Positions 36,319 to 59,582 are shown, counted from the first letter of the stretch. The stretch: DNA of 64,000 bases from Candidatus Altiarchaeota archaeon (GCA_043800255.1 JAZDNF010000006.1:54730-118729), one strand, 5' to 3'. Notes: generated from the letters alone by a model not told the origin. Numbers and translations: made by a program.

Positions 36319-36624
36319 TTATCCTATAAGCTCGTCCAAAACCAGTCTGACCGCCTTGTCGAAGTTCTTCTTTGACATCAGCTCCAGCTCTTTCGCCCTT
36401 ATACCGGCTTGGGAGATTATCCGCTCAGACTCGGCCTGTGCCTTTTTACTGGCAGCCTCAATCTGAGAGCTGGCCTTAGCCTCTGCGTCAGCCTTCTTCC
36501 TGCCGACTATTTCATCCCTGGAGGCTCTGGCCTTTTTCACGTCTTTTCCGCCATCTGCCTTAGCTGTCTCCACATCCCTGGCAATCCCAGCCTCAATCCC
36601 CTTCAGCCGTTTAAGCTCTTCCAT
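36319..36624 (-). CDS. atpH: A/V-type ATP synthase peripheral-stalk subunit H/G
   Basis: Ala/Lys/Glu-rich helix ending KNFDKAVRLVL; first gene of the operon. Confidence 0.75.
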   Translation of the reverse strand: MEELKRLKGIEAGIARDVETAKADGGKDVKKARASRDEIVGRKKADAEAKASSQIEAASKKAQAESERIISQAGIRAKELELMSKKNFDKAVRLVLDELIG

Positions 36625-36726
36625 GTCAGAACAGGCTATGAAGTTGATTATGTGATTTGAAAGTAAAAAAATACGGTGGAATGCTATTTTAGTGTTTCAG
36701 ACAATAGTTAAACTTCATAGGACAGA

Positions 36727-39186
36727 ATGACGTCAGCTCATAAACGCGAATATGCGGGCCTTTTTGTGGTATCGCTCGCCACTCTCATGTACGAGATACT
36801 CCTCACGAGGATTTTCAGCGTCGTAACCTGGTATCATTTCGCGTTCATGGCCGTGTCGATCGCATTGTTTGGACTTACTGTCGGGGCGATAATAGTCTAC
36901 CTGTTCCGGAAGAAGTTCACAGAAAAGCTGGCAGTGCAGCGCATGACGCAGGCTTCGCTCCTCTTTTCCATAACAGTTGCGGGAACGTTCATAGTATACC
37001 TGCTGATGCCGTCCATCTTCCACGAGGCTGACAGGCTATTATACACTCCAACCCTCTTGTGGGCAGGCCAGCGCCTGCCGGCAGACGTCCTCGAGTTGGC
37101 TTACGGCTTCCTGACGGGAGTGCTCCCCAGGATTGTAGAGTACTCCATAATATCAGTGCCGTTCATATTCAGCGGCATATGCATAACAGTCGCGCTGACA
37201 AAGTTCCCGAGGGATATCAGCAGGATGTACGCTTTCAACCTAACTGGGTCAGCTCTGGGATGCATTCTCGTGATACAGGCTCTCGACCTTTTCGGCGGCC
37301 CGACTGCTGTGATAGTGGTCGCAGGGGTTGCTGCAATCGGTTCCGCCTTGTTCTCACCTGAACGCAGAACACAGGGAATCCGCCAGACTGCAGTCATCAT
37401 CGGCATAAGCTTTCTAGCGGTTGCAGGCATGAACGCCCTCTTCATGGAGAGCGGCAAAACTCTTTTCCCGATAGTATACGCTAAGGGAGCATACCAGGCT
37501 ACGCCGTTGTACGAGAAGTGGAACTCGTATTCGAGGATTGCAGTCTACGGAGACCCTGAGAAGCTGACCGTGCCTTCAGGGTGGGGGCTATCGAGTACTT
37601 ACAGCCTGAAGGGAAATATAAGACAGCTCGCCCTCAACATTGACGCCTCAGCTCTCACGCCTCTGACAGAGTTCAACGGCAGCTTTGATAGGCTGGATTA
37701 TCTGGCCTATGATGTGACTAACATAGCTCACCATATAAGGCGGGACTCTGACGTGCTGGTCATCGGCTCGGGAGGGGGCCGCGATATTCTCTCGGCGCTC
37801 TACTTCAACCAGACGTCTGTGGTGGGCGTGGAAGTCAACGGGGACATAAACGACGTCGTCAACAAAGTCTTCGGAGACTTCACCGGGCATCTTGACAGGA
37901 ACCCGAAAGTCTCGTTTGTCGCTGACGAGGCGAGAAGTTACATCACAAGGCAGGACAGCAGGTTCGACATGATACAGATATCGTTGATTGATACATGGGC
38001 TGCGACCGCTGCCGGAGCCTACGTCCTCGCCGAGAACTCGCTCTACACTGTCGAGGCCTGGACCGTGTTCTTAGATCATCTCACGGACGGGGGCGTCCTC
38101 AGCGTCTCAAGATGGCATATGACAGGCTCTCCGGGCGAGATTTACAGGCTGACGTCGCTTGCGACTAAAACGCTGCTGGAGGCTGGCGTCGACAATCCTA
38201 GAGCCCACATATTCATCGTTAGGGGAGGCTCTGTCGGCACGATGCTTATGAGCAGGGAGCCGTTCACCCAGCAGGATATCAATACGTTGGAGGAGACTGC
38301 AAAGCGCATGAACTTCGAGGTGCTGTTAAGCCCGAGGCACAGTTCTGACGGCAACTATGCTGCCATCTCATCAGGCCGGAATTTCGAACAGTTCGTATCA
38401 GACTTTCCCCTGAGGATAGAGGCGCCCACAGACGACAGCCCGTTCTTCTTCAACATGCTCAGGCTGAAGGACATCTTCAACAAGCGCCTGCAGGATGAGC
38501 AGGGCATCGTCAGCTTCAATATGAAGGCTATATCGATGCTCGGGGCGCTCCTTTTCACAGTGGTCTTCCTGACGCTGCTCTGCGTTGTCGTTCCATTATT
38601 TGTTTCGAAAGGCAGGAAGCCGGAACGTAATTCTCTGCCATTCTTCATGTTCTTCGCCTTCATAGGTTTGGGCTACATGCTGGTCGAGATCTCGCAGATG
38701 CACAGGCTCATCGTATTCCTCGGGCATCCCACGTACAGCCTCTCGGTGGTGTTGTTCTCTCTTCTTCTTTCGAGCGGCGCAGGCAGCTACTCGACTGAAT
38801 GGATTGCAACCAAGAATCGGCGCTCAGCCCTGATGAGGCTGTCTCTGCTGATGTCAGCTCTCATCCTGTTCGGCCTCCTGACACCGTATGCGATAGGCAG
38901 CTTCAGAGCCTCAACCAATCTGGTCAGAATCTCTGTCGCATTGTTGATACTTCTCCCGTTGGGCTTCTTCATGGGCATGGCTTTTCCCCTCGGGATGAAG
39001 GCAGCATCCTCCAAAGCAGCTCATCTAACCCCCTGGCTGTGGGGCATCAACGGCGCAACCTCAGTCTGCGCTTCAGTCATCGCCTTCGTCATAGCCTTCG
39101 CCTACGGCATATCAACCGCATTCTGGACCGGCCTAGGATGCTACCTCATAGCATTCGCCTCCTATGTTTGGTTAAACAGGGATTGA
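36727..39186 (+). CDS. Multi-TM protein with a central spermidine-synthase-like SAM-binding domain
   Basis: VLVIGSGGGRD, GVEVN, DEARSY, ENSLYTVEA, PTDDSPFF; TM bundles on both sides. Confidence 0.85.
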   Translation: MTSAHKREYAGLFVVSLATLMYEILLTRIFSVVTWYHFAFMAVSIALFGLTVGAIIVYLFRKKFTEKLAVQRMTQASLLFSITVAGTFIVYLLMPSIFHEADRLLYTPTLLWAGQRLPADVLELAYGFLTGVLPRIVEYSIISVPFIFSGICITVALTKFPRDISRMYAFNLTGSALGCILVIQALDLFGGPTAVIVVAGVAAIGSALFSPERRTQGIRQTAVIIGISFLAVAGMNALFMESGKTLFPIVYAKGAYQATPLYEKWNSYSRIAVYGDPEKLTVPSGWGLSSTYSLKGNIRQLALNIDASALTPLTEFNGSFDRLDYLAYDVTNIAHHIRRDSDVLVIGSGGGRDILSALYFNQTSVVGVEVNGDINDVVNKVFGDFTGHLDRNPKVSFVADEARSYITRQDSRFDMIQISLIDTWAATAAGAYVLAENSLYTVEAWTVFLDHLTDGGVLSVSRWHMTGSPGEIYRLTSLATKTLLEAGVDNPRAHIFIVRGGSVGTMLMSREPFTQQDINTLEETAKRMNFEVLLSPRHSSDGNYAAISSGRNFEQFVSDFPLRIEAPTDDSPFFFNMLRLKDIFNKRLQDEQGIVSFNMKAISMLGALLFTVVFLTLLCVVVPLFVSKGRKPERNSLPFFMFFAFIGLGYMLVEISQMHRLIVFLGHPTYSLSVVLFSLLLSSGAGSYSTEWIATKNRRSALMRLSLLMSALILFGLLTPYAIGSFRASTNLVRISVALLILLPLGFFMGMAFPLGMKAASSKAAHLTPWLWGINGATSVCASVIAFVIAFAYGISTAFWTGLGCYLIAFASYVWLNRD

Positions 39187-39189
39187 GAG

Positions 39190-39303
39190 ATGGAAGTTCA
39201 TGTCGACATTAGCGGACAGATTGAACAGATGAGTAAAGACTCTTGTGTTGGTTTCAGACGCAGTGACGGTAAAACTCATAGAGAAGAAGATGTTAGAGTT
39301 TAA
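39190..39303 (+). pseudogene. Internally deleted remnant of an RNase H-fold/DUF3800-like gene
   Basis: MEVHVDISGQIEQ resembles the hydrophobic-strand DxSG start; another frame carries a plausible original C-terminus VKLIEKKMLEFK*. Confidence 0.45.
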
Positions 39304-39387
39304 GTAGGGATAGTCCTCATATGAGGCAGACCCGATTACGCTCTGGGGGTAAAAACCTTGTCCACAGCTCCTCCAGGCTACCCCTAC
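39304..39387 (-). ncRNA. Candidate ~84-nt structured ncRNA
   Basis: 10-bp closing stem GUAGGGGUAG/CUAUCCCUAC whose G-U pair forms only on the minus strand; inner stems CUGGAGG/CCCCCAG and CCUC-AUAU-GAGG; TATA-like ATTAAATA about 25-30 nt upstream. Confidence 0.6.
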
Positions 39388-39502
39388 ATAATACTAAGGG
39401 GGAGTAGATTATTTAATAATTTCGCTAGTATAGTATAAGACTTCGTTGTAATACTTCTGCCCCCCGCACCGCCGATTCCTCAATCCCTTACATAGCCCAA
39501 TC

Positions 39503-39524
39503 CCGCAAAATATATTTTTTGCGG
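39503..39524. terminator. Inverted repeat downstream of the thioester-protein gene
   Basis: CCGCAAAA-TATATT-TTTTGCGG. Confidence 0.4.
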
Positions 39525-39582
39525 ACAGATGCCGGAGGCGTTAAATAATATTTGATTAGTGAAGAAAGACCTCTGACGTCAA

Positions 39583-42500
39583 TTATTTAGCTGTTATCCT
39601 TCCCCCTTCAATCTCTGTCTTTGTTTCGGGTCTGTAGTAGGAGTATGCCTTACTTGCGGGGATTATCGCTTTAACAGGGAATCTCGCTTTGACCTGTAAA
39701 TCAAATTCCAGTTCTTGATCTCGGACTAAGTCATCTACGTAGACTATGATTTTCCGCCCACCGACCTCAATTTTTGGTATCAAATCTTCTTCCTCTATGA
39801 GTTTGTCTAAACTATCTTGAACGTGGACGAATCCAGTAGGTACTGCAACGTCAACTATCATCATTCCTGAGGAATTACCTCTTCCAACATATTTCACTTT
39901 CACATGGACATTGACTATATCATTAACAATGACATTTTTAGAGTCGTAGTCTACTTCTAGTTCAATCTCTTTCCTCTCTGTTATGTTAGGCGGAGCTATG
40001 TTAAATTTCGTAACCAATTGGTAATTCACATCTCCCTTCCCCTTAAGATATACTCTGATATTTTCTGTAGTACTAGGCAGTTCCTGTATCTGGAGGACGT
40101 CAAAGTTCTCAGGATTGAGTTCGAAATCGTTAACCTTTTTGCCGTCAGCTGTTAGGGTGACGGTAGCGTCAATATTTTTTCTTTGGCCTGACGCTGCTGC
40201 CACAAGAGCCTTGAATGCGATGACCGTGTCCTGGGTTGACCTGAATCCGCCCTTCGAATTTCTCTGCGAAACAATCCATTTCATGACTTTGTTGGCTTCG
40301 GCCCTGTTAGCTTCTATAAGTGATAATGCCGCGTATGCTGTTGTCTCAACACTCTTCCCCGGCGGCGTTGGAGGTGGGAGCATTATACGTCCATATTGTT
40401 GTCTTAGGATTATAGGATCCTCACCCCAGTACATTCCATTGTCGTCTTCTTTGGCCAAATCGAGAAGGGCTACTATCGCCTCATCTGCCTTATCACTTTC
40501 AAGCTTCTGAAGTGTTAGAGAACCTATAGCCAGCGAGTAGGCGTCATCTTCCACTGAATCGAGATTGTCTTCGAGATATTTTTTGGCTTTATTCATCACA
40601 TCAGCATTAGCGTTTCCATACTCGTCCAAACCCAATACGATGTAAGCTGTGAGCGAGTAGGTTCCACTTAAACTGCCTGACATCTCCTTGTGGACGAGGA
40701 AACCAACATGATCCCATGAACCATCCTTCTTTTGGTGACCCTGTATCCAAGCTGCGGCAGTGGACAAAATGTTATCGTCGATTTCTATCAGGTCTCTCGC
40801 GCTTGCAAACTCCCATAAAACAAAGTTCGTAAGCCACAGACTTCCTGATTCGTCTCTCTCTCCGAACGCAGAGTATGAGCCATCACCATGCCTATAAGTT
40901 AATTCTCTCTGATAACCCGTCTGCATGAACACTTCTACCTTAGCCTGCACTTCAGGATTAACCTGTTTTGTTGCCTCAAGGTATCTCATAACCTCAACAT
41001 CAGGGGCGAACAACATCATATTCTGCTCTCCACATCCCATAGGCATCGCAAGTAAATCATCAACACCATTGATTGACTGAGCGACGATACTCGGCGTGAG
41101 ACTGAAAAGTAATTTACCAGAGTCTTGGATAATAGCATCCGGTAGCTGAGCGTCAATAGTGACATCTTTATCTGCCTTGAGTATGCCGTTCTCAACAAAT
41201 TCCCTCTGAACCCCCTCAGGCTCTACAATAATCTCTCTCTTTACTGCGTCAGCACGTTTGGTAGTCCTCGCGGTAACGTCAACGGTTTTCACGCCTAATT
41301 TCTTGGGTCTGATGGTAAAGCTAACGGAACTGACGCTGTTTCCTTCAACTTCGACATCGGTTTTACTTTCACCTAACAAGTCAAACCAGTCTTCCTTGTC
41401 AAGCTCTAGATAAACATTCTGTGGAGTGTCAAGATAGTTGTACACTAACACGCTTACTGGGAACTCTTCCCCCCGGGTTACAGCATACGGTAGGTCAGAT
41501 TCTACGAAGAAATCCTGGAATACTGTGAGATCAGTTTCAACCAACCCTAAACCCTTCACAGAAGAGGATATGGCATGAAGCTTCCAAGTTGTTATAGAAT
41601 CAGGCACAGTCAATGTTAGCTCTGCCTTTCCACTGTTATCAGTCAGTAATTCAGGATTCCACAACCAGGTTTCTGGGAAAAACTGCCTAACTCGTGAGAC
41701 CTCAGCAAGAGGCTCCCCTTCTTGTTCCACTCTTGGCTCAGACACCGAAGCCGTTACACCAGCCCCTACTGCAAGCCCTTCAAACCAAACCCCTCTCCCT
41801 CTTCGTATTAGCGAAACTCTATCTGGCTTTTTCGGCTCTGGGAACTTAAGAGTTTTTGAGCCAAGAGCTTGCATTCCTGTCTCTTTTAACATATCAATTG
41901 GTGTTACTGTCTGGCTGAAATCGTATATTGACGTGTAAACTGGGTGAGCTTCAGCCTGTGGTTCCATAAATCGTTTCTCCAATTCATCAAATACCTGCCT
42001 TATATTAAGCCTTCCTTCACTGAGAGCGTAAACTGACTCATCAACAATCGAAACACCGATCATAGACTTCCCTTCTGCATCGAAGTTAATGTTTATACTG
42101 TCACCAGGAGAGGCTTCATCTTCGCTGAATTCTGCTTCCAACTCAACGGGAAAACTCGGTCCAACATCGAAAGGAAGAGTATCAACCGATACCTCGCTGT
42201 TCGGGTTTATCTTATATGCCACAAGCTTGGATTCAGGGCTCATCTGAAATGTGATTGGAATCTCTATTGTCATTTCTGAATTATTCCTGAAGAATTGAGT
42301 GGAACTCGAGTAAACAGTTCTACCAGAGGATACGACATCATAGTATATCCGCCCTCCTTGGGTTGCATATACTTTGAAGGTGATAACATCCCCTACTTTA
42401 GGTGTTCCCTTTGTCTGCTGTATTAGGTGTATGAAATTGGAGGTTGGTGAGTACACGGATTGCAACGCTAATTCGACTTTAGTATCCTTGTCTTTGGATA

Positions 42501-43959
42501 ATCTCGCATTTACTTCAACAGCATACGTGTCCTCTGGAGGCGTGAAAGAGGCGACAGCTAAACCATTCCTTGTTTGTAAAGTAAGTTTCTCACTTTCAAT
42601 GGAATCAAAGTCTATGTCTTTATAGTTCACATCCACTATAACCTTTTCAGATAACGGCTCTCCATCAGGTGTTTCAGTGACCACAAGTATTTCGAAGGGG
42701 ATGGTAGGTTTCACTGCACGGCTTTCTAGAATCAACTGAAGTACAGTCGACGACTGAGTAATCTTAAGAAGCTTGGATGTCTCCTCAGTATGTCCTCCAG
42801 TATCAGTTACAGATATATTCAATAACAGACTACCCTGCCCACCCGCTCCTACGGTTCCAGCCACGTATTCGGCAGGCGGTAATGTGAATTCAGTCGATCC
42901 ATTCTCAAGGTCAGCAGTATAAGTCGTATACTTAATCCATTCTCCAACGTATTTATAGGTATCAATTTTAACTTCCCCTTCCACATTCTTACCGAAGAAA
43001 TAATCAGCACTAACCTTTCCGGTTATCTTCTCGCCTACCAAAAACCATTCTCTTGGAAGGTCAATAGTAACCTTGAATTTAGGTAGGACGTACTTTTCAA
43101 CCAGAATGTCTATGTTTGTTTTGGAAGAACCAGACTCAGAGTAAATCTTCCATGTTCCAAAGTTTAGGTCGATTGCTAGAGGCAATTCGAAAGTGGCAAC
43201 GCCGAAATCGTTGCTGGTGATATTCTTTTTGAAGATTTTTATGCCCTTAGCATCCAATATTTCAACTATAAGGTTCAGACTCATCGGTTTTAGATTATTG
43301 TCCAATGTTAGAACTCGTCCCTGAATCAGCTGACCTGGCTTGTATATTGGCTTATCGGTTTCAACGAACAACGCAGGATTCTGCTTTATTGTAACACTGC
43401 CGTTGAAGGTTTGGCTTGTTCCAATAACATTTGCAATAATTTTATAGACTCCGCTCTCGACGTTAGGTACTATAAATGACGCAACAGAATGCCCCTCATC
43501 GCCGGTTGAAGCCTCAACAAGTTTAACATCTCTGTTATTGCGTTCATCTTTTAAGGAATACTCTATACATGCTTTCGCGGGAGCTTGAGAGTCCTTATCT
43601 GTTGAGGCCATGGTAACAGAGGACTCAGCCCCTGCAAACATCATCTTGGGGACGAGAATAAGATAATCTAGATCATTTTTCACTGACCGGCTTTTGGAAT
43701 CACAATCTAACGGCGGGTTCGTTAACCTGAAGGCAGGTTTTACTTCAACAGGTTCGTCTATTTTAGATGGCAATGTTATGCTAGGTTTTATCTGTTGGTC
43801 ATCGCACACTCCATCCGCATTCTCATCCAAACAGCAGTCACTACCGTCTCTAATATACGGCTCATTACATTCAGGAAGAGACGCTGGAGGCTGTTCTTCA
43901 ACACAGCCACTAAAAAATAAGACCCCTACCAGGACCACGACGAAAAGATTACTTTTCAC
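39583..43959 (-). CDS. Lipoprotein alpha-2-macroglobulin/thioester-containing protein (TEP)
   Basis: Lipobox FSGC; ETDKPIYKPG, YVLPKF, RQFFPETW, VPDSITTW, GCGEQNM, YQREL, GGFRSTQDT, GMMIVDVAVPTGF, YSYYRPE. Confidence 0.95.
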   Translation of the reverse strand: MKSNLFVVVLVGVLFFSGCVEEQPPASLPECNEPYIRDGSDCCLDENADGVCDDQQIKPSITLPSKIDEPVEVKPAFRLTNPPLDCDSKSRSVKNDLDYLILVPKMMFAGAESSVTMASTDKDSQAPAKACIEYSLKDERNNRDVKLVEASTGDEGHSVASFIVPNVESGVYKIIANVIGTSQTFNGSVTIKQNPALFVETDKPIYKPGQLIQGRVLTLDNNLKPMSLNLIVEILDAKGIKIFKKNITSNDFGVATFELPLAIDLNFGTWKIYSESGSSKTNIDILVEKYVLPKFKVTIDLPREWFLVGEKITGKVSADYFFGKNVEGEVKIDTYKYVGEWIKYTTYTADLENGSTEFTLPPAEYVAGTVGAGGQGSLLLNISVTDTGGHTEETSKLLKITQSSTVLQLILESRAVKPTIPFEILVVTETPDGEPLSEKVIVDVNYKDIDFDSIESEKLTLQTRNGLAVASFTPPEDTYAVEVNARLSKDKDTKVELALQSVYSPTSNFIHLIQQTKGTPKVGDVITFKVYATQGGRIYYDVVSSGRTVYSSSTQFFRNNSEMTIEIPITFQMSPESKLVAYKINPNSEVSVDTLPFDVGPSFPVELEAEFSEDEASPGDSININFDAEGKSMIGVSIVDESVYALSEGRLNIRQVFDELEKRFMEPQAEAHPVYTSIYDFSQTVTPIDMLKETGMQALGSKTLKFPEPKKPDRVSLIRRGRGVWFEGLAVGAGVTASVSEPRVEQEGEPLAEVSRVRQFFPETWLWNPELLTDNSGKAELTLTVPDSITTWKLHAISSSVKGLGLVETDLTVFQDFFVESDLPYAVTRGEEFPVSVLVYNYLDTPQNVYLELDKEDWFDLLGESKTDVEVEGNSVSSVSFTIRPKKLGVKTVDVTARTTKRADAVKREIIVEPEGVQREFVENGILKADKDVTIDAQLPDAIIQDSGKLLFSLTPSIVAQSINGVDDLLAMPMGCGEQNMMLFAPDVEVMRYLEATKQVNPEVQAKVEVFMQTGYQRELTYRHGDGSYSAFGERDESGSLWLTNFVLWEFASARDLIEIDDNILSTAAAWIQGHQKKDGSWDHVGFLVHKEMSGSLSGTYSLTAYIVLGLDEYGNANADVMNKAKKYLEDNLDSVEDDAYSLAIGSLTLQKLESDKADEAIVALLDLAKEDDNGMYWGEDPIILRQQYGRIMLPPPTPPGKSVETTAYAALSLIEANRAEANKVMKWIVSQRNSKGGFRSTQDTVIAFKALVAAASGQRKNIDATVTLTADGKKVNDFELNPENFDVLQIQELPSTTENIRVYLKGKGDVNYQLVTKFNIAPPNITERKEIELEVDYDSKNVIVNDIVNVHVKVKYVGRGNSSGMMIVDVAVPTGFVHVQDSLDKLIEEEDLIPKIEVGGRKIIVYVDDLVRDQELEFDLQVKARFPVKAIIPASKAYSYYRPETKTEIEGGRITAK

Positions 43960-44037
43960 CTTGATAATCTATTCTAACCCTTCTTTAAAAGAAAGGACGT
44001 TTTTGTTAGGTTGAAACCGAAACTTAGCACTAAGACT

Positions 44038-44223
44038 TCAACCCCCAGGTTTCACCGAGCGTTGAGATTTTGTAACCTTGGGTAGATAGGATACCATAAC
44101 CAATACTCCACCAATGCCTCCATAGTAAGTATCTATTCTAAGATAGTAGCAAATCATCATACCGACAAATGTAGCGATGAAAACCTTGATTGCCAGTATA
44201 AGGTAAAACTTAACTTTACTCAT
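44038..44223 (-). CDS. Small two-TM hypothetical protein
   Basis: Hydrophobic, AT-rich; 4-nt overlap with the upstream ORF. Confidence 0.5.
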   Translation of the reverse strand: MSKVKFYLILAIKVFIATFVGMMICYYLRIDTYYGGIGGVLVMVSYLPKVTKSQRSVKPGG

Positions 44224-44606
44224 TCCTTCAATCCCTCCAATACGCTGGCGGTTATGGTTATGAAACCTATTAGGAATATTATGACTTCTTTAGTAGGGGT
44301 TCTTTTTGAAAGGCGAGAAATAAGACTGAGATTACAATAACGAAGGGAACTACTACTTGGGCAATATCTATTGTTTTTTCTTGAATTTTTCCGTTTCAAA
44401 TACAAATTAATCCATAAGTGACCCATCAAAACAAAGGGAACTGCCAGTATACCCGCTATAACAAAACTCAAAGAGTTTATTATTCCAAATTTAGGAGTAA
44501 ACTGAACTCCTATTATCAGAAAAACAATACCTAAGCGTAATGCTAACTTTAAACTGCCTTTGCATGCATCATGAATATCCTTAGGGTATCTGAATAGGAT
44601 TATCAT
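44220..44606 (-). CDS. Hypothetical membrane protein
   Basis: About three hydrophobic segments; AT-rich. Confidence 0.5.
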   Translation of the reverse strand: MIILFRYPKDIHDACKGSLKLALRLGIVFLIIGVQFTPKFGIINSLSFVIAGILAVPFVLMGHLWINLYLKRKNSRKNNRYCPSSSSLRYCNLSLISRLSKRTPTKEVIIFLIGFITITASVLEGLKE

Positions 44607-44741
44607 ATTCCCTTTTCTCCTTTAATACCAAACTCCCCACGTACATATTGCGAACCTGATAAAAACTATCGTGAAAATCACAATACCTGTGAGACTTTTG
44701 TGCAAATGCGACTTTTGGGCAAGCCTGCCTGAATCGTAAGC

Positions 44742-44783
44742 TTTTTATATGATTAGATACAATATTTAGTATTTGTTAAATAT
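44742..44783 (+). promoter_or_regulatory. TATA box and putative operator of the ABC exporter operon
   Basis: TTTTTATA, then inverted repeat ATATTTA-N8-TAAATAT (44762-44783). Confidence 0.5.
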
Positions 44784-44807
44784 CCTGTATTTGCAGTATT
44801 TCGTAAA

Positions 44808-45305
44808 ATGACAGACCCAGTGGAACAATCGAAGAAGAACATCTCAGGAGCCTACAACACGGTCCTCAGAAGGCTCGGCCTGAACCCAGCCTACAGTGAC
44901 ATCTACTTCACGCTCTTCTTCGCAAATAAACCGCAAGGCATAAAGGAGCTCTCCAAGGCGACAGGCTATAGCGTCTCGACCATATCCAACTCGATGAAGT
45001 TCCTTGAGAGCTTCTTCGACATCGAGCGCTCCAAGCAGCCTGGAAGCAAGAGAGTATACTTCAGATGCAGGCACCAGTTCTATCAGCCGGTTGAGAGGAT
45101 ACTGCTGGTGAGGGCAGATATCATAAAGATGATGCTAGAAGTCCTGAGAGAGGAGGATGAGAGGCTCAAGAACGTGAAAACCGAGGATGGGAGACAGGTG
45201 CTGGAGAACATACGAAACCTGAAGAAAGACTGCGAAAGCATGGACATGATAATGAACAAGGTCCTTGAGATGCAAAAAGAACTTTTTAAGGATAAAAACA
45301 GATAA
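44808..45305 (+). CDS. GbsR/MarR-type wHTH transcription regulator
   Basis: LGLNP, IKELSKATGYSVSTISNSMKFL, PGSKRVYF. Confidence 0.85.
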   Translation: MTDPVEQSKKNISGAYNTVLRRLGLNPAYSDIYFTLFFANKPQGIKELSKATGYSVSTISNSMKFLESFFDIERSKQPGSKRVYFRCRHQFYQPVERILLVRADIIKMMLEVLREEDERLKNVKTEDGRQVLENIRNLKKDCESMDMIMNKVLEMQKELFKDKNR

Positions 45306-45317
45306 GAGGAAGGCAAG

Positions 45318-45632
45318 ATGATAATCGTGAACACTGAGGGAATAGCGGGGAGGGAAATCGCCGAAACACTTGGTTTAGTGAGAGGCTCCACTATCAGGGC
45401 GAAGTGGTTCGGCAAGGACATCATGGCAGGCATCAGGAACATCCTCGGCGGGGAGCTGAAAGAGTACACTGAGATGATGACAGAGGCGAGAGAGCAGGCC
45501 CTGCGCAGGATGGAGGATAACGCGAAAAAGCTGGGAGCCGACGCTGTGGTGAACGTCAGATTCTCGACTTCGATGGTGATCGGAGGCTCAGCGGAGATGC
45601 TCGCCTACGGGACGGCAGTAAAATTAAAATGA
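45318..45632 (+). CDS. YbjQ/UPF0145 family protein
   Basis: GKDIMAG..NILGGELKEYT, GADAVVNVRF, AYGTAVK. Confidence 0.93.
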   Translation: MIIVNTEGIAGREIAETLGLVRGSTIRAKWFGKDIMAGIRNILGGELKEYTEMMTEAREQALRRMEDNAKKLGADAVVNVRFSTSMVIGGSAEMLAYGTAVKLK

Positions 45633-46333
45633 CCAAAAAGCACGAGAAACATCTCATAGAACTGAAGGAAGTGTGGAAGACGTACCATATGGGACAGGTG
45701 CAGGTTCACGCCCTCAGAGGCATGACGTTGAACGTGCACGCCAAGGAGTTCCTGGCAGTGATGGGCCCCTCGGGAAGCGGGAAGAGCACAGCCTTGAACA
45801 TGGTAGGATGCCTGGACGTCCCAACCAAAGGCACCATCCTGCTGGACGGGATAGACATCTCAAAGCTCCATGAATCAGACCTCGCGCAAATTAGAGGTAG
45901 GAAGATAGGATTCGTGTTCCAGCAGTTCAACCTCATGCCATCCCTCACGGCGCTTGAGAACGTAACCCTGCCAATGGTGTTCCAGGACATCTCAGAGGCC
46001 GAGAGGGAGAGGAGAGGCAGGCACTGGCTTGAGAGGATGGACCTGGGAGACAGGATGCACCACAGGCCGACCGAACTGTCAGGGGGGCAGCAGCAGAGGG
46101 TAGCGATAGCGAGGGCGCTCGCAAACGATCCACAAGTCATACTGGCAGACGAGCCCACAGGGAACCTGGACACGAAATCGGGAGAGGACGTGATGCAGCT
46201 CCTCAAGGACCTGCACAAGGACGGCAAGACCATAGTCATGGTCACCCACGATCCTGACATGGCAGAACACGCGGAAAGAATCGCGCATCTTAGGGATGGA
46301 AAAATATTGGAAAATGGAGGTAAGAAAAAATGA
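45629..46333 (+). CDS. LolD/MacB-type ABC transporter ATP-binding protein
   Basis: GPSGSGKS, LSGGQQQRV, ADEPTGNLD, VTHD. Confidence 0.95.
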   Translation: MTKKHEKHLIELKEVWKTYHMGQVQVHALRGMTLNVHAKEFLAVMGPSGSGKSTALNMVGCLDVPTKGTILLDGIDISKLHESDLAQIRGRKIGFVFQQFNLMPSLTALENVTLPMVFQDISEAERERRGRHWLERMDLGDRMHHRPTELSGGQQQRVAIARALANDPQVILADEPTGNLDTKSGEDVMQLLKDLHKDGKTIVMVTHDPDMAEHAERIAHLRDGKILENGGKKK

Positions 46334-47622
46334 GAAGAATGTTTTTTGTATTGTTAATGGGGATTTTGATGACGTCAATGGTTTCAGCCGAGATCAGGAT
46401 AGACTCTGTCAGCTTCGACCCAGCGCAGATACAGTCCGGCGACGAGGCCACAATATACGTCAAGATGCACGACAGCCTGATAGGGAGGGACCTATGGAGC
46501 GGCCAGACAACAGGCTACTCTGACAAGGGAGTCGTCCAGGAGAACCCGGATCTCTTCTATTATGCGAAACTGATCCCCAAGGACGACATCGCAAAAGAGT
46601 ACATAACGATAATAGACGGGGAGAAGAGGATAGGTCACCTCTCGCCTGGCGAGAGCTGGACCACACCCCTGAGGGTTAAGGTTGACGGCAACGCGCCTGC
46701 CGCAGACTACAAGATGGATTTTCAGGTTATACAGAGGAACGCCAAAACCCTCGCTGACGAAATAGCAAGGAGCTACCAGTTCAACATCACCGTGAAGGGG
46801 ATCATAAAACTGAACCTCCAGTCAGGCGACACACTGGATCTGGGGGCGGTGAACGATCTCTGGGTGAGCATAACAAACGAGGGCGGCGGAACCGCAAGGC
46901 ATGTCAGCATGAAGCTTGACGTGAACAACTCCTTCACAACATTGCAGTCATCTGAAGCCTACGTTGGAAGCATCTCAGGAGGGGTGCAGAGGAATGTGAC
47001 CTTCAAGATAGCGGTCGACAACGACGCAACTCCTGGAGCCTACAACATACCAGTCACCCTAGAGTATGTGAACGAGTCAGGCTCTGCGCAGAAGCTCAAC
47101 AAGACCATCGGAGTCAGAGTCGAGGGCGAACCGACCATCAGGGTCAGCCTGGACGGCGACGAGAAGTACACGGAGGGAGGCGCCAATACGGTGACGATAA
47201 ACGTGATAAACGAGGGTTTCGTTGACGTGAAGTTCCTTGACGTGCGGATTCTAGCTTCAGAGGATTATATTGTCGAATCAGCAGACAGCTCCTACATAGG
47301 AACCCTGTCCAGTGACGACTTCGACAGCGAAGACTTCACACTACGCTTCACAAAGGAGGGTATAGTGCCAGTGAACATTAGGATAATGTTCAAGGACCAG
47401 TACTCTGACAAATCCTATGAGAGGACTGAGCAGGTGAACGTCCACGTACTCAGCAAGAGCGAATACGCAGCCCTCCAGCAGGAGAACGGAGGAAGCAGCG
47501 TGCTCGGGAAGCTCCTCATACTCCCAGGTCTGTTCGTAGCCTACCTGGTCTTGTGGTTCCTCTACAAGATAATGGGTAGGATAACCGAGTGGCTGAACAG
47601 GAGATTCTTCAAGAAGGCTTAA
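46330..47622 (+). CDS. COG1361-type S-layer-domain protein
   Basis: Signal peptide, Ig-like repeats (NEGGGTA, PGAYNIPV), C-terminal TM. Confidence 0.8.
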   Translation: MRRMFFVLLMGILMTSMVSAEIRIDSVSFDPAQIQSGDEATIYVKMHDSLIGRDLWSGQTTGYSDKGVVQENPDLFYYAKLIPKDDIAKEYITIIDGEKRIGHLSPGESWTTPLRVKVDGNAPAADYKMDFQVIQRNAKTLADEIARSYQFNITVKGIIKLNLQSGDTLDLGAVNDLWVSITNEGGGTARHVSMKLDVNNSFTTLQSSEAYVGSISGGVQRNVTFKIAVDNDATPGAYNIPVTLEYVNESGSAQKLNKTIGVRVEGEPTIRVSLDGDEKYTEGGANTVTINVINEGFVDVKFLDVRILASEDYIVESADSSYIGTLSSDDFDSEDFTLRFTKEGIVPVNIRIMFKDQYSDKSYERTEQVNVHVLSKSEYAALQQENGGSSVLGKLLILPGLFVAYLVLWFLYKIMGRITEWLNRRFFKKA

Positions 47623-47648
47623 GCCTTACGCGCCCCTCTGAGGGGCGC
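47614..47648. other. Two adjacent palindromes/hairpins inside the ABC operon
   Basis: AAGGCTTAAGCCTT and GCGCCCCT-CTG-AGGGGCGC. Confidence 0.5.
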
Positions 47649-47659
47649 ACCCTCTTACC

Positions 47660-48889
47660 ATGTTCTATGACTACCTGAAGCTCGGGATAGGGAATATCAC
47701 CCACAGGAAGCTGAGGTCATGGCTGACCATGATCGGCATATTCGTGGGGATAATGACTGTGGTAGCCCTCATCTCGCTGGGCCAGGGCCTCCAGAACAGC
47801 ATAGACCGTGAATTTGAAAAGGTCGGCGGCGACAGGATAATGGTGACGCCAGGCGGCGGGGGACTGGGCATGACATCCAACCCGGGCATGTCCGACTTCA
47901 CGGCGGCGAAGCTGCGCGAAAGCGACCTAGACGTCATAAGGAACGTGAGAGGAGTCGACCAGGCGATAGGCATCCTCGTACAGTCAGGCCAGGTGAAGCT
48001 GCGGCGTGAGACAAAATATGCCCAAGTATACGGCATCGACACAGACGTAGAGACTCTCGGCTTCCTGAAGCAGTTCGACTACTTCATCGTAGACCAGGGC
48101 AGATACTTCAGGGATTCCGACAGATACAAAGCCATCGTAGGCGTTGACACCGGAGACTCGCTGTTCGACAGGGACCTCAATGTTGGCGACAAAATCTGGA
48201 TAGAAGACATAGAGTTTGACATAGTCGGCATCAACAAGAAGGCAGGCAACCCAGCCCACGACCAGAAGATAGTCATACCCCTGGAAACCGCCAAGGAAGT
48301 TTTCGGCAAGACTGATGAATTCGCGATGATAAGCGTGAAGACCGCCAAAGGCTTCGAACCTGCCAACGTCGCCGAGGAGATAAAGAAAAAACTGAGAAGG
48401 CACAGGGACGTGAAAGAGGATGAGGAGGACTTCTCAGTTGAGACCGCTGAGGCTGCGATAGAGGCCTTCAAGACCGTGCTCAACATCGTGCAGTCCTTTC
48501 TGGTGGGAATAGCAGCAATCTCCCTCATAGTGGGAGGCATAGGCATCATGACCACAATGTACACTTCGGTCACGGAGAGGACCAAACAGATTGGGATCAT
48601 GAAAGCCATCGGCGCCAGAAACTCCGACATAATGAGGATATTCCTGATAGAGTCAGGCCTGCTGGGAATGGTCGGCGGGATCATAGGAGTCGTCTTCGGT
48701 CTCATGCTCAGCAAGGGAGTCGAACAGCTGGCGCACTACTACGACATAGAACTTTTCACGGCGTGGATTTCGTGGGAGCTTATAGTTGGGGCTTTGACAT
48801 TCTCGTTCATAATAGGCTGCGTATCGGGAGTCTTCCCTGCCAGGAAAGCAGCCAGGATGAATCCCGTGGACGCATTGAGGTTCAGGTAG
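47660..48889 (+). CDS. MacB/FtsX-type ABC permease
   Basis: RSWLTMIGI, GGIGIM..M.TSVTERTKQIGIMKAIGA, PARKAARMNPVDALR. Confidence 0.95.
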   Translation: MFYDYLKLGIGNITHRKLRSWLTMIGIFVGIMTVVALISLGQGLQNSIDREFEKVGGDRIMVTPGGGGLGMTSNPGMSDFTAAKLRESDLDVIRNVRGVDQAIGILVQSGQVKLRRETKYAQVYGIDTDVETLGFLKQFDYFIVDQGRYFRDSDRYKAIVGVDTGDSLFDRDLNVGDKIWIEDIEFDIVGINKKAGNPAHDQKIVIPLETAKEVFGKTDEFAMISVKTAKGFEPANVAEEIKKKLRRHRDVKEDEEDFSVETAEAAIEAFKTVLNIVQSFLVGIAAISLIVGGIGIMTTMYTSVTERTKQIGIMKAIGARNSDIMRIFLIESGLLGMVGGIIGVVFGLMLSKGVEQLAHYYDIELFTAWISWELIVGALTFSFIIGCVSGVFPARKAARMNPVDALRFR

Positions 48890-48890
48890 G

Positions 48891-50105
48891 ATGATAGGAG
48901 ACTATTTCAGGCTTGCGATAGGGAACATAAGGCACAAGGGCATAAGAAGCGTGCTGACGATGATAGGCATCTTCATCGGAATAGCTGCGGTAGTCTCCCT
49001 GATATCTCTTGGAGAGGGCCTGCAGAACGCCATAAACGAGCAGTTCGAGATGCTGGGCAGCAACTATGTCATGATAATGCCCGGCGGAAACTGGGGCATG
49101 ACCAGCGGCTCGTCAAAGCTGATGGAGAAAGACCTGAAGCTGATAAGGAACGTGAGGGGAGTCAGCATGGCTGCAGGCAGCATGGCCAAGACCGCAAAGC
49201 TGAAGTACAAGGACGAGATAAAGTACTATTTTGTCATCGGGTTTCCCACAGACGACAGCCAGGACATCTGGCTTAAGGGCTCCGGCATAAAGGTCATCGA
49301 AGGACAGAAGGAATTTAAACCGTCTGACAGGTACAAGGCAGCTCTGGGATACCTCTACGCCAAGGGAGATGTGTTCGACCGCCCTGTGAACGTCGGGGAC
49401 ACCCTCTACATACAGGACCAGAAGTTCGACGTCGTCGGAAGGATAAGCGAGATAGGGAACCCAAGCGATGATTCCCAAATTTACATACCAACTCAGACGT
49501 TCAAGGACATGTTCGGCATCAAAGAGGACGAGTATATGGTCATCATGGCCAGGACTAAGGAGAACTTCGACCCGGCTGACGTCGCGGAGGACATCGAGAA
49601 AACCCTCAGGAGGAGCAGAGGCCTCAAGGAGGGTGAGGAGGACTTTCAAGTGCTGACGACGGAGCAGATGAAGGAGAGCGTCGGAACAGTGCTTGACACC
49701 GTGAATGCGATACTGTTGGGCATCGCCGCAATCTCACTCATAGTGGGAGGCATAGGCATCATGAACAGCATGTACACTTCCGTCCTTGAGAGGACGCAGG
49801 AGATAGGCGTCATGAAGGCAATCGGGGCGAAAAACTCAGACGTACTTAAGCTGTTCCTCATAGAGTCAGGCATCATGGGCATGGTCGGGGGGGCGGTAGG
49901 CATCATAATAGGCGTCGGACTCGGCAAGAGCGTGGAATATGCCACATCCCAGACGTCCTCGGGAGCCCTGCTGAAGGCCGACATAAGCTGGCAGCTCATA
50001 GTCGGGGCCCTCGCATTCTCGTTCATAGTGGGCTGCGTCTCCGGCGTGATGCCCGCAAGGCAGGCCTCCAGACTGAAACCGGTGGACGCGCTAAGGTACG
50101 AGTGA
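48891..50105 (+). CDS. MacB/FtsX-type ABC permease (second paralogue)
   Basis: Same motifs: ERTQEIGVMKAIGA, PVDALRYE. Confidence 0.95.
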   Translation: MIGDYFRLAIGNIRHKGIRSVLTMIGIFIGIAAVVSLISLGEGLQNAINEQFEMLGSNYVMIMPGGNWGMTSGSSKLMEKDLKLIRNVRGVSMAAGSMAKTAKLKYKDEIKYYFVIGFPTDDSQDIWLKGSGIKVIEGQKEFKPSDRYKAALGYLYAKGDVFDRPVNVGDTLYIQDQKFDVVGRISEIGNPSDDSQIYIPTQTFKDMFGIKEDEYMVIMARTKENFDPADVAEDIEKTLRRSRGLKEGEEDFQVLTTEQMKESVGTVLDTVNAILLGIAAISLIVGGIGIMNSMYTSVLERTQEIGVMKAIGAKNSDVLKLFLIESGIMGMVGGAVGIIIGVGLGKSVEYATSQTSSGALLKADISWQLIVGALAFSFIVGCVSGVMPARQASRLKPVDALRYE

Positions 50106-55143: not shown

Positions 55144-58100
55144 TTATTTCTTCAATCTTACGGTCACTGTGTAACTCTTCCCGTCGTCAAGCGTTACCCG
55201 TATGTCCAGTTCGCCTGCTGCAAGGCCCTTGGTCTCCAGGTTGAATATGTACTGCTGGTCTACAGGATCGTATCTGAAGATATTGCCCGACGCTGCCTTG
55301 CCTGCCGGAGTCGCATCCTCCCACGGCCCGCCATTGCTGCTCACCTCTAAACCCGCGACCGCTGTTGGAACATACGCTCCGTAGGCGTCTTTTAACTGGA
55401 ATTTGACAGGTATTTTGCTCCCAAGCTTGAAGTCTGCCTTCAGCAGGCCGAACAGTCTTTTGGCCACGGGCGGTAAGATACCTCCAAAGTCATAGGCCAC
55501 ACTGTAGGTGACCGTCTCTGTCACTGTGTTCCCAGCCGCGTCTGTTGCGCTGACAGTGTACACTTTGATTCCAACGACTGCAGTGTCTATTGGAATCCCA
55601 TTTTCGGTTGTGCCGCTCTGTGCTACAACACCAGACAGTAGATCAGAGACGCTCCACCCAGCCAACACATTCTGACTGAGAGCATATTCTCCGCCGTCGG
55701 CTGGAGAGGTTAATGTTATGACAGGCGCTGTCTTGTCGATGCTGATCCCGGACACGGTTGCCGACGCACTGTTCCCAGCCAAATCAACACAGGTTCCCGA
55801 TGTGGACTGGCCAGCAGCTTCGGCGCTCAACGTCTGATCTTCAGACAACGCCCCTACACCAGACAACGCATCTGCGCAGACATAATGTACTGTCACGTCG
55901 GTGTTATACCAGCCTGCGCCGTTAGGATCGGACGACGGCGCACCGCCTATGACAGGCGCTGTCTTGTCGATGCTGATCCCAGACACGGTTGCAGACGCAC
56001 TGTTCCCAGCCAAATCAACACAATTCCCGAGAACCGACCGGTTGGCGCCTTCAACAGTAAGAATCTGGTCACCGGTAACAGTATAAACGCCAGAGCCGCT
56101 GTCAACACAATCAAAGTGGACTGTCACATCACTATTGTACCAGCCTGCGCCATTAGGATTGGACATCGGTCCGCCACCTATTACAGGCGGCAGGGTATCC
56201 TGGACTTTTACCGTGAAAGTTACGGGTGTCGCGCTGTTGCCAGCAGCGTCTTCCGCTGTGCAGGTGACAATCGTCTCCCCAAGCGCGAAAACTGAGCCAG
56301 AAGTCGGGGCACATGTTGCAACTCCCGCCCCGTCAACAATATCGTTTGTTGCAGTAGAGTCGTATGTTACAACCGCGCCGGCAGGAGAAGTTGCTTCTGC
56401 AACAATATCATCGTGGGCTTCTATCACCGGCGGCGTGGTGTCAACCACGGTAACCGTTGCCGTGCATGATGCAGTGTTCTCGTTGTCATCCTCTGCCGTG
56501 AAGGTCACAGTCGTGTCGCCCAGAGGGTAGACGTCCAACTTAGTGTCGGTTAAAACCAGGTCAGAATCACACGCATCGGCGGCGGTGGCCGACAAAGGCA
56601 CGACCGCGCCAGAGCTGGATTCTGCCTCAACCGTCACATCTTCTGGGCACTCTATTTTCGGAGGTGTTGTATCCTCTACAGTTACCAGCATCGAACAACC
56701 GGCGCTGTTATTCTCATCATCCTCTGCCGTGAAGGTCACAGTCGTGTCGCCCAGAGGATAAACATCTAACTCGGTGTCAGTTAACACGGGGGTTGAATCG
56801 CACACGTCAGCGGCTGTGGCTGTTAGAGGCACATCTACACCAACATAAGACGCACACTCTGCAGTCACATCACCAGGACACACAACCTCAGGCACACCCG
56901 TATCAGTCACGGTAACCCTTACATTACATGATGCCGTGTTCCCGGCATCGTCTTTCGCTGTGAAGGTCACAGTAGTTTCGCCCATTGGGTAAACATCCAG
57001 TGCAGTGTCAGACAACACCGGCGTTGGATCGCACACATCCGCAGCACTGGATGCTAAAGGCACAGCCGCGCCAGCATAAGACGCACACTCTGCAGTCACA
57101 TCACCAGGACACACAACCTCAGGCGCAACCGTGTCAGTCACGGTAACGGATACGCTGCAGGTGGCGTTATTGCCGTAACCATCAGTCGCAGTGTATAGTA
57201 CGGGAGTTATGCCGAGAGGATAGCTTGAAGCACCGGGGTTTGTAACAGTGTAGGACGAGCAAGCGTCCCAGACAGTCGCATCGCCAGGGTCGACCATAGC
57301 CTGCAGGTTCTGCGCGCATTCAGCAGTGGCTGCTGTCGGGCAGGTTATTGAAGGCGAATTGCAGTCTCTCACCGTCACGACAGCGCTGCAGCTGTCACTG
57401 GCTCCGGAATCATCGCTAACTTCCAGGGATACTGTGCGGCTTCCCACGCCAAATGGTCCTGCAGGATCCTGTGTGACAGTTATGGGGTCAGCATCTGGAT
57501 CATATGAGCCTCCGTTTACGCTAACAGCAACTGTGCATGTGGCTGAGCTGACGCATTTGGCCATATTGCTGCAGACTGCGACAGGCGGCTCATTTTCTTC
57601 AGTGACTGGCGAGTCAATGACAGTTCTCAATATCGTATTGCATGTGTAGTAGCCGACGCTAAGCGGCGGCGCAAGGCCGATGCCAAAGCCAAAACTGTCT
57701 TGTGTCCCCATAAGCTCCCCATCCTGGTTGAAAGCCTGTGCGGTAGAGATTGAAACAAAATCGCCTACGCCCGCCGACTGGACGAAGTTTACGGACGCGT
57801 CCTCAAAGTCGTCGTATGAGTTGTAAAATCCGACTGTGGCGAAGTCTGATATCCCTATGCTTGCCTCTCCGCCTGTGCAGTAGGACAGGTAGCAGCCATA
57901 TCTGCCGTCCTGCCCGTATACGGTACCCACCTCATCGGTGGCGCCCACTCCGACGGTTGCGGCGCTGCCTCCGCCGAAATTCATCGTGACAGCCCCGTCT
58001 TTAGCGCTCTTGTGCGTTTTTGAGCTGTACATTGCGAGGCACGAGTCTTCGTCGATGCTATCATGGCTTGGCTCTGGGAAACACTGGGATGGGTAATCGC

Positions 58101-59379: not shown

Positions 59380-59582
59380 ATTGTTTTTTGTTCGAAAATC
59401 AACCAACTCCCTCGAACATCGTTCAGATGGGTTATAGTATAGGCAGTAAGCGAATAAAAGAGGAAGATGAGGTTCCCAAAAAAAAAGGAACCCCGTGCAT
59501 TATTTACTGCTTGTGCTTGCGCTTATGTTATTGGATAATTTATGCATATTATTCCTAATAGACACTATAATTATGTGGTCTT

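Follow-up and report, generated by a model that had tools for sequence, protein, structure and literature searches.

The window analysed here is a 64,000-nucleotide stretch of Candidatus Altiarchaeota archaeon (GCA_043800255.1, JAZDNF010000006.1:54730-118729). The subject of this work is one of its minus-strand genes, which encodes a predicted lipoprotein of the alpha-2-macroglobulin (A2M) and thioester-containing protein (TEP) family, referred to below as the archaeal A2M. Only three codons are open upstream of its GTG start, and the next Met is residue 106; a start there would delete the leader. The gene is the only one in the 1.75-Mb genome that carries a thioester domain (TED). It is flanked by housekeeping genes, namely an A-type ATPase operon, ProRS and pyruvate kinase. 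ATPase subunit A, encoded 4 kb away, has its best named hits in Ca. Altiarchaeota/Altiarchaeales at 68-71% identity, which bears out the archaeal host named in a first-pass annotation made from the sequence alone. The gene and the parts of its product are as follows, with Pfam E-values in brackets.

39583-43959, minus strand: gene for the A2M/TEP-family predicted lipoprotein, 1458 amino acids, GTG start, stop included (open reading frame [ORF] list, translation and Pfam architecture).
43903-43959, minus strand: putative signal peptide and lipobox, residues 1-19 (FFSG-C19), read from the sequence.
43798-43869, minus strand: Cys-rich head CNEPYIRDGSDCCLDENADGVCDD, residues 31-54, then a Pro-rich linker; present in 1 of 120 A2M homologues.
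43132-43371, minus strand: MG2, residues 197-276 (PF01835, 1.4e-15).
Minus strand: MG3, residues 289-360 (PF17791, 6e-12).
Minus strand: MG4, residues 414-489 (PF17789, 5e-6).
Minus strand: A2M_BRD, residues 513-646 (Pfam).
41704-41934, minus strand: bait region, about residues 676-752, containing RRGR; placed by lowest conservation and variable length among homologues.
41794-41805, minus strand: RRGR, residues 719-722 (motif position).
41665-41688, minus strand: RQFFPETW, residues 758-765, the conserved segment after the bait (motif position).
Minus strand: A2M domain, residues 764-852 (Pfam).
40201-41088, minus strand: TED (TED_complement), residues 958-1253 (PF07678, 2.1e-80); a helical toroid in the AlphaFold2 (AF2) model.
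41023-41037, minus strand: thioester motif GCGEQ, residues 975-979, with Cys976 and Gln979 (motif position).
40690-40692, minus strand: His1090, placed by alignment with the CD109 His and A2M Asn-1088.
39613-39876, minus strand: MG8/A2M_recep, residues 1362-1449 (PF07677, 1.5e-17); a beta-sandwich in the AF2 model.

All of the Pfam domains exceed their cut-offs. Members of the family are built of an MG1-MG6 ring carrying an inserted bait-region domain, then MG7, CUB, TED, CUB and MG8, and the domains found fit this plan. The ORF, the predicted lipobox and the domain set thus agree with the earlier description of a 1458-residue lipoprotein with the whole A2M/complement core. The same description included a receptor-binding-type C-terminus. 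That domain is present, but it is merely MG8, which is structural in all members of the family. Neither an ANATO nor a C345C/NTR domain was matched by Pfam at E up to 0.01 anywhere in the protein. A scan against NCBIfam gave sub-threshold squalene-cyclase matches only, which are expected because the TED is a toroid. The body of the protein has two Cys besides that of the thioester. The leader, MKSNLFVVVLVGVLFFSGC, has the appearance of a basic n-region and a hydrophobic core followed by the lipobox FSGC, and the protein would be lipidated at Cys19. Of 120 aligned homologues, 80 have Cys at the lipobox position and 12 have a gap there, and ANME-2 homologues have an uncleaved anchor helix in place of the lipobox. 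Judged by its sequence, the gene encodes a real, intact relative of animal A2M and CD109 that is predicted to sit on the archaeal surface. It is a complete and apparently functional thioester protein of the animal-like class (GCGEQ, PF07678).

Conservation of the active site was assessed in an alignment of 120 rows, consisting of the query and 119 homologues; P0002, which is identical to the query, was left out. The intact GCGEQ is exactly as the first-pass annotation stated, and GCGEQN is invariant in all 120 rows. His1090 lies 114 residues past Cys976, within residues 1080-1096 (GSWDHVGFLVHKEMSGS), and is likewise invariant (120/120), in the motif GF[VIL]xH[QEK][DE]Mx-GG. In the hydroxyl-reactive subclass (C3, C4B, A2ML1 and CD109 type), the His that forms the acyl-imidazole comes about 114-116 residues past the thioester Cys. 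To align this His, TED residues 946-1270 were searched against PDB sequences, and the HMMER alignments were used. His1090 pairs with the CD109 His in 'grvihselqg'. In human A2M, its partner is the first Asn of 'sllnnaikg', residue 1088 of 6tav_A counted from the row start. Human A2M therefore has Asn at this position, as had been claimed. The equivalence with C3 rests on the A2M alignment and on published work (PMC7864068), not on a direct C3 alignment. Together, the pairing with A2M Asn-1088 and the CD109 His and this publication uphold the earlier claim that the His aligns, and on this alignment His1090 occupies the catalytic position of C3, C4B and A2ML1.

The further implications drawn from the His fared differently. 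It is not special to this protein, being invariant across the homologues. Its use as a sign of an opsonin fails as well. Human A2ML1, a monomeric protease inhibitor, uses its His to conjugate proteases via hydroxyl groups (PMC7864068). This residue, His-1084, is at the same position, and conjugation of proteases through Ser hydroxyls was demonstrated experimentally (PMC7864068, PMC9156758). Membrane-anchored CD109 has the His too. Since both A2ML1 and CD109 are inhibitors, the His is no pointer to an opsonin and does not tell a trap from an opsonin.

The first-pass annotation also described a bait-like region containing RRGR just before RQFFPETW; this region is present and is hypervariable. 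Inside the protein, conservation is lowest at residues 691-750, where homologues match the query at 13-23% identity, compared with 50-80% in the flanks. The segment corresponding to residues 640-758 ranges from 98 to 173 residues in length across 115 full-length homologues. The bait is bounded by the invariant stretches QVFDELE.RFMEPQ and RVRQFFPETW, and R, Q, F, P, E, T and W of RQFFPETW are invariant in a 40-sequence alignment. RRGR was considered as a conserved processing site and rejected, since a basic cluster of this kind occurs in only 3 of 120 baits. One homologue, P0086, which groups with the Altiarchaeota-labelled L035, has a 131-residue bait with an inserted Cys-rich run of C-x2-C-type repeats, which shows that baits of this family accept quite different inserts.

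The class of the protein was determined by comparison with solved structures. When the whole protein was searched against PDB sequences with phmmer, the matches were human A2M (E 3.3e-132), A2ML1 (4.6e-124), CD109 (1.1e-118), C4-B (1e-84), TEP1 (1e-84) and C3 (2.7e-77). No bacterial A2M was among the 60 matches listed (of 74). With the TED alone, the best match was CD109 (3.4e-59), and none of the 51 matches was a bacterial A2M. E. coli YfhM matched the archaeal A2M by BLASTP at E 0.004 at best, and the TED half gave 19% identity at E 0.4. In E. coli K-12, YfhM has pbpC as a neighbour, and its motif is seen as GCLEQ in the BLAST alignment. No penicillin-binding protein gene was found near the archaeal gene. 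The first-pass annotation had set this protein apart from proteobacterial A2Ms, with their CLEQ motif and pbpC neighbour, and had called it metazoan-like; on the motif, the strong animal matches in the PDB and the marginal match to YfhM, both statements hold.

A structure of residues 740-1458 was modelled with AF2 from the 40-sequence alignment (pLDDT 81, pTM 0.72) and compared with native and activated structures. The TM-score (TMq) was 0.80 against native A2ML1, 0.80 against the native A2M monomer and 0.79 against native CD109 (8s3o; root-mean-square deviation 4.4), with 0.74 for native C3 and 0.74-0.76 for native TEP1. Scores against activated forms were lower: 0.33-0.36 for C3b, 0.45 for induced A2M and 0.39 for active CD109 (9fx3). 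The fit to native rather than activated structures suggests a closed conformation. The model thus predicts a protein of the animal-like class in a closed, thioester-protecting state.

Proteins of this kind are common. Residues 740-1458, searched against 5.8 billion proteins, gave 3691 hits among 7999 candidates scored, and the 119 best non-self hits were 51-66% identical. Named hits belong to Methanolobus, Methanococcoides, Methanomethylovorans, ANME-2, Ca. Methanogaster and Planctomycetota. The usual annotation is 'alpha-2-macroglobulin family protein' or 'CD109 antigen', and the family is annotated in dozens of archaeal genomes. When 1.84 billion cluster representatives were scanned exhaustively with HMMER, 12,461 proteins reached E 1e-3 or better, 2,682 of them 1e-30 or better. 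Among the 150 best representatives, 69 have GCGEQ, with His at the aligned column in 58 of them, and 77 have GCFEQ (a longer group), with His in 33. The GCGEQ representatives that were looked up include animal CD109-like, A2M and TEP1 proteins. The prokaryotic ones come from Altiarchaeales (or an Atribacteria bin), Undinarchaeales, Planctomycetota and Acidobacteriota.

A tree of close homologues was built with FastTree from 138 rows and rooted on Planctomycetota. Rows shorter than 1200 residues and P0002 were excluded, and row L029_x (branch length 5.17), which is a wrong ORF, was disregarded. The query groups with P0003 and P0004 at support 100. This trio, together with a group that includes the Altiarchaeota-labelled L035 and the same-order genome G021, is sister to a clade of 114 rows (support 98), whose named rows are Methanosarcinales except for one labelled Nanoarchaeia. 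Two wider trees were rooted on GCFEQ rows, an assumed root: a FastTree tree of 75 rows and a quick IQ-TREE run (LG+C20) of 48 chosen rows and 683 columns. The GCGEQ clade has support 100 in both. The animal sequences also form a single clade with support 100 in both. In these trees, which hold no C3 or C4 rows, the query lies outside the animal clade. From its placement, the query is nested neither among the animal proteins nor among those of the ECAM type. The outcome that would have refuted the first-pass annotation thus did not arise: the protein stands outside the ordinary ECAM-type A2Ms, and its His aligns.

The animal clade and a metagenomic group fall inside or beside prokaryotic diversity in both wide trees. 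This group, made up of P0248, P0250, P0254, P0255, P0266 and P0268, consists of GCGEQ/His proteins on contigs of up to 60 kb. Both trees make it the closest sister group of the animal TEPs, and knowing which organisms it belongs to would help to trace their origin.

The N-terminal head of the archaeal A2M has a separate history. The first-pass annotation had noted a Cys-rich lipoprotein head. It is present, but as a module typical of the host's order, not of the A2M family. Its pattern, C-x2-P-Y-I-x2-G-x2-C-C-L-D-x-N-x-[DN]-x2-C-D, has four Cys and is found only in the query among the 120 A2Ms. It follows the leader of many secreted proteins. In this genome, it occurs in five ORFs, the A2M gene and the four listed next, all four of which have it between a leader or anchor helix and a Thr/Ser-rich linker.

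G000 C5:1281-1835: head-bearing ORF.
G000 C7:60114-60656: head-bearing ORF.
G000 C9:10214-11185: head-bearing ORF.
G000 C11:36906-38315: head-bearing ORF.

Searches with a 41-residue query (residues 20-60) matched the head in 36 of 48 other genomes of the same order, at up to 14 places per genome, and at four places in the Altiarchaeota-labelled genome reached via L035. No match was found in 12 genomes drawn from two further families of the class, in four A2M-carrying Methanosarcinales genomes or in Pfam. The sequence thus indicates that the probably imported A2M bears a leader module typical of the host's order, and this head may represent a so far undescribed domain of that order, serving as an anchor or stalk. 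The GC content at third codon positions (GC3) of the head is 0.40, like that of the rest of the A2M gene, and three of the four other head genes have 0.61-0.68. Since the head agrees with the A2M gene in GC3, a lower-GC member of the same order is a plausible donor.

The gene lies within a stretch of distinct composition, as follows.

39187-44807, no strand assigned: low-GC island, about 5.6 kb, with the A2M gene and a 128-residue ORF (GC3, intergenic GC).
44220-44606, minus strand: 128-residue hydrophobic ORF upstream of the A2M gene, GC3 0.31.

The A2M gene has a GC content of 0.434, lower than that of its flanks (0.51-0.57) and of the whole genome (0.502). Its GC3 of 0.414 contrasts with 0.68-0.75 in the neighbouring genes on either side, with sharp boundaries, and ranks at the 5.8th percentile among 821 ORFs of 300 or more residues. 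Intergenic GC within the island is 0.34-0.43. None of 20 other genomes of the same family has a match of over 50% identity to the archaeal A2M, and a single one has a relative, at 33%. Of 20 genomes searched from the order's other families, two have such a match: G021, at 52% over the full length, and G025, at 56% and truncated where its contig ends. The foreign composition and the lack of same-family orthologues favour horizontal acquisition, and on these sequence data the gene was probably acquired in this way. This matches the earlier suggestion, drawn from the visibly AT-richer gene, and the patchy distribution adds to it.

Three groundwater-metagenome DNA runs from one study cover shares of 0.06-0.09 of the stretch. 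Their contigs fall on the flanks, at about 36348-39436 and 44713-47000, with 85-97% identity. From about 39670 to 44440, most bins have zero depth and the others no more than 0.83, and no contig bridges the region.

Taken together, we consider it likely that the archaeal A2M is a lipid-anchored, monomeric thioester protease trap on the outer face of the cytoplasmic membrane, and that its gene, which belongs to a clade of animal-like GCGEQ/His proteins found across prokaryotes, was probably acquired horizontally on the 5.6-kb AT-rich island. The protein would be exported via its signal peptide and anchored by a lipid at Cys19, with the Cys-rich head and Pro-rich linker acting as a spacer from the membrane. 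The ring of MG domains would present the hypervariable bait, with RRGR in this case, to foreign endopeptidases. Cleavage of the bait would free the compact CUB-TED-MG8 body and expose the Cys976-Gln979 thioester. His1090 would then attack the thioester to give an acyl-imidazole, which would acylate hydroxyl or amino groups of the protease. The cleaving protease would be fixed covalently at the cell surface, as with A2ML1 and CD109. Thioester formation, protease capture and hydroxyl reactivity are all expected here by analogy with these relatives. A trap is favoured because of the absence of complement-specific domains and partner genes, the hypervariable bait and the fact that the closest relatives are inhibitors.

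Several results weigh against parts of this proposal. Concerning origin, the query trio joins the group of L035 and G021 in the FastTree tree, with weak support (86). In the IQ-TREE tree, the archaeal sequences form an unresolved base, and the grouping of the trio with Altiarchaeota is not recovered. The genome also holds about 35 other low-GC islands. Concerning function, a His introduced into A2M (N1088H) gave little hydroxyl conjugation (Harwood et al., PMC7864068), so that the His alone is no guarantee of hydroxyl chemistry. The monomer state is suggested only indirectly, by the resemblance to CD109 and A2ML1 and by the lack of extra Cys. When ORFs of 27 other A2M loci were compared with those of the window, no conserved partner gene beyond A2M itself was found. 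The sole other shared neighbours were a generic ABC ATPase (six Methanolobus loci) and the V/A-ATPase operon (one Pirellulales locus). None of the sequencing runs listed for the stretch was an RNA run, and no bench study of any archaeal thioester macroglobulin was found in open-access text.

The strongest competing explanation concerns origin alone and leaves protein function the same: the gene may be a vertically inherited Altiarchaeota gene that was lost in most lineages, with its AT-richness reflecting a local constraint on composition or expression. Orthologues exist in other Altiarchaeota-labelled or same-order genomes (L035, G021, G025 and P0243), the FastTree grouping places the trio with Altiarchaeota as sister to the Methanosarcinales clade, and the gene bears the order-typical head. 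This history is nevertheless unlikely, although it deserves attention. It would have to account for the absence of a match of over 50% in 20 other same-family genomes, for the contrast in GC3 between the gene (0.414) and both sides (0.68-0.75) across sharp boundaries, and for nearest homologues that are just 62-66% identical. The Altiarchaeota grouping is absent from the IQ-TREE run. In addition, three of the four other head genes have native GC3 (0.61-0.68), whereas the A2M head has 0.40.

Another explanation concerns function. In complement-like tagging or adhesion, the His-assisted thioester, once activated, would covalently join the protein, and with it the cell, to hydroxyl-rich surfaces, such as glycans of other cells, viruses, predators or a biofilm matrix, and the protein would serve as an opsonin or adhesin in place of a protease inhibitor. 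The His is at the position that gives hydroxyl and glycan reactivity in complement C3/C4B (PMC7864068), and the protein is predicted to be tethered at the cell surface. Complement-like deposition by A2ML1 was left open by Harwood et al. (PMC7864068), and Makarova et al. discuss archaeal A2Ms under inter-microbial conflict (PMC8416519). We nonetheless regard tagging as improbable. The protein lacks ANATO and C345C domains, and its gene has no neighbours of the convertase or receptor partner type. A hypervariable, exposed bait is a hallmark of broad protease sensing, and among solved proteins, the inhibitors A2M, A2ML1 and CD109 come closest both by sequence and by fold. An anchor in its own membrane would mostly tag the protein's own cell.

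A broader version of this idea is a little more doubtful still. In it, prokaryotic His-bearing GCGEQ proteins would be the stock from which animal TEPs came, rather than copies of animal genes, and the archaeal ones would be a hydroxyl-reactive, surface-tethered 'proto-complement' that tags invading cells and viruses as well as proteases. On the GCFEQ root, the wide trees place the animal clade within prokaryotic GCGEQ diversity; the root, the sampling and the quick search leave room for other outcomes. The tree position bears on the old question of whether animal TEPs came from prokaryotes or the reverse.

Finally, it is hardly credible that the island is an assembly or binning artefact in which foreign (e.g. 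Methanosarcinales) DNA was joined to an Altiarchaeota contig: the assembly is of the metagenome type, in 17 contigs, and the island differs in composition, but the gene lies in the middle of a 118.7-kb contig between housekeeping genes, its order-typical head (36 of 48 other same-order genomes, none of four Methanosarcinales genomes) argues against chimeric assembly, and with 51-66% identity to any database protein, the gene is no copy of a known Methanosarcinales gene.

The surroundings of the gene hold further observations. Two small hydrophobic ORFs, of 128 and about 61 residues, lie directly upstream of the A2M gene inside the island (44037-44606, minus strand). Neither has a family match, and both are candidate genes. 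On the other side, an 819-residue polytopic membrane protein (36727-39186, plus strand) has a sub-threshold spermine-synthase-like domain (E 0.0018). Only 4 of the 20 family genomes, none of the same genus, have it, at 32-38% identity. A plus-strand run of native composition (44808-50105) adjoins the island and encodes a TrmB-like regulator (weak match), a YbjQ-family protein, an ABC ATPase, a CARDB/NEW3-domain secreted protein and two MacB/FtsX-type permeases. According to Makarova et al. (PMC8416519), some archaeal A2M genes have peptide-transporter genes close by; a transporter link to A2M was not conserved in the 27 other loci compared. At 11 kb from the A2M gene, a 1420-residue ORF (55144-59406, minus strand) has four HYR domains (PF02494, 2.8e-42) and Ig-like matches, and would be a second very large surface protein. 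In a Pirellulales metagenome-assembled genome (L033:439-13933), an A2M homologue of 45% identity adjoins a V/A-type ATPase operon; the A and B subunits encoded there share 55-57% identity with their counterparts in the window. The gene arrangement differs, so this adjacency is probably a coincidence. Scans of the window for Rfam families and for tRNAs gave no matches.

Archaeal proteins of this kind are already annotated at NCBI and have been noted in print, and the His is the default of a large class. Archaeal A2M homologues with CxEQ were described by Makarova et al. (2021; PMC8416519). There, several Methanomicrobia A2Ms, for example that of Methanolobus psychrophilus, are described as close to bacterial A2Ms and as probable acquisitions from bacteria. 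The word 'archaea' does not occur in a 2026 review of A2M evolution (PMC12939704). In open-access text, no relevant paper was found for 'macroglobulin' with methanogen names or with 'Altiarchae', and no statement was found on the His in archaeal A2Ms. What is new here, namely the host phylum, the AT-rich island and the order-specific head graft, amounts to modest points. Archaeal A2Ms are 30-38% identical to animal TEPs over 700 residues. Being nearly free of Cys, and maybe without animal-type N-glycans, they would be easy recombinant models for thioester/His chemistry and for the bait-triggered switch.

Among known systems, the Methanosarcinales A2Ms (Methanolobus, Methanococcoides, ANME-2 and Ca. 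Methanogaster) are 51-60% identical to the archaeal A2M over the full length. They have the same domain order, invariant GCGEQN and His, an N-terminus with a lipobox or membrane anchor and a hypervariable bait. The hosts differ, being methanogens in their case and Altiarchaeota-like here. Makarova et al. (PMC8416519) liken archaeal A2Ms to the kind of Garcia-Ferrer 2015 (ECAM), whereas here the similarity to ECAM is marginal and that to the animal proteins is strong. The type I bacterial A2Ms, ECAM/YfhM and Salmonella A2M, are lipoproteins with an intact thioester, features that are predicted for the archaeal A2M as well. ECAM-type A2M presumably guards the envelope from proteases as a monomeric 'snap-trap'. 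ECAM differs from the archaeal A2M in its GCLEQ, its pbpC neighbour and its absence from the PDB sequence and fold matches listed.

The animal proteins are the nearer comparison. C3/C4B and insect TEP1 share with the archaeal A2M the MG-CUB-TED-MG8 core, GCGEQ and the position of the catalytic His. In contrast to complement, the archaeal protein has no ANATO or C345C/NTR domain and has a bait region where the convertase site would be, and its E-values to C3, C4B and TEP1 are 40-50 orders weaker than those to A2M and CD109. A2ML1 (7q1y, 7q5z), a monomeric, hydroxyl-reactive inhibitor, shares the His position and the native fold but is secreted, glycosylated and disulfide-rich. CD109, a monomeric thioester protease inhibitor with a glycosylphosphatidylinositol (GPI) anchor, is both the best TED sequence match and the best fold match. 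The two proteins are about 30% identical and are tethered at opposite ends, CD109 by its C-terminal GPI anchor and the archaeal A2M by its predicted N-terminal lipobox. They are alike in GCGEQ, the aligned His, a membrane tether (predicted in the archaeal A2M) and the absence of ANATO and C345C domains.

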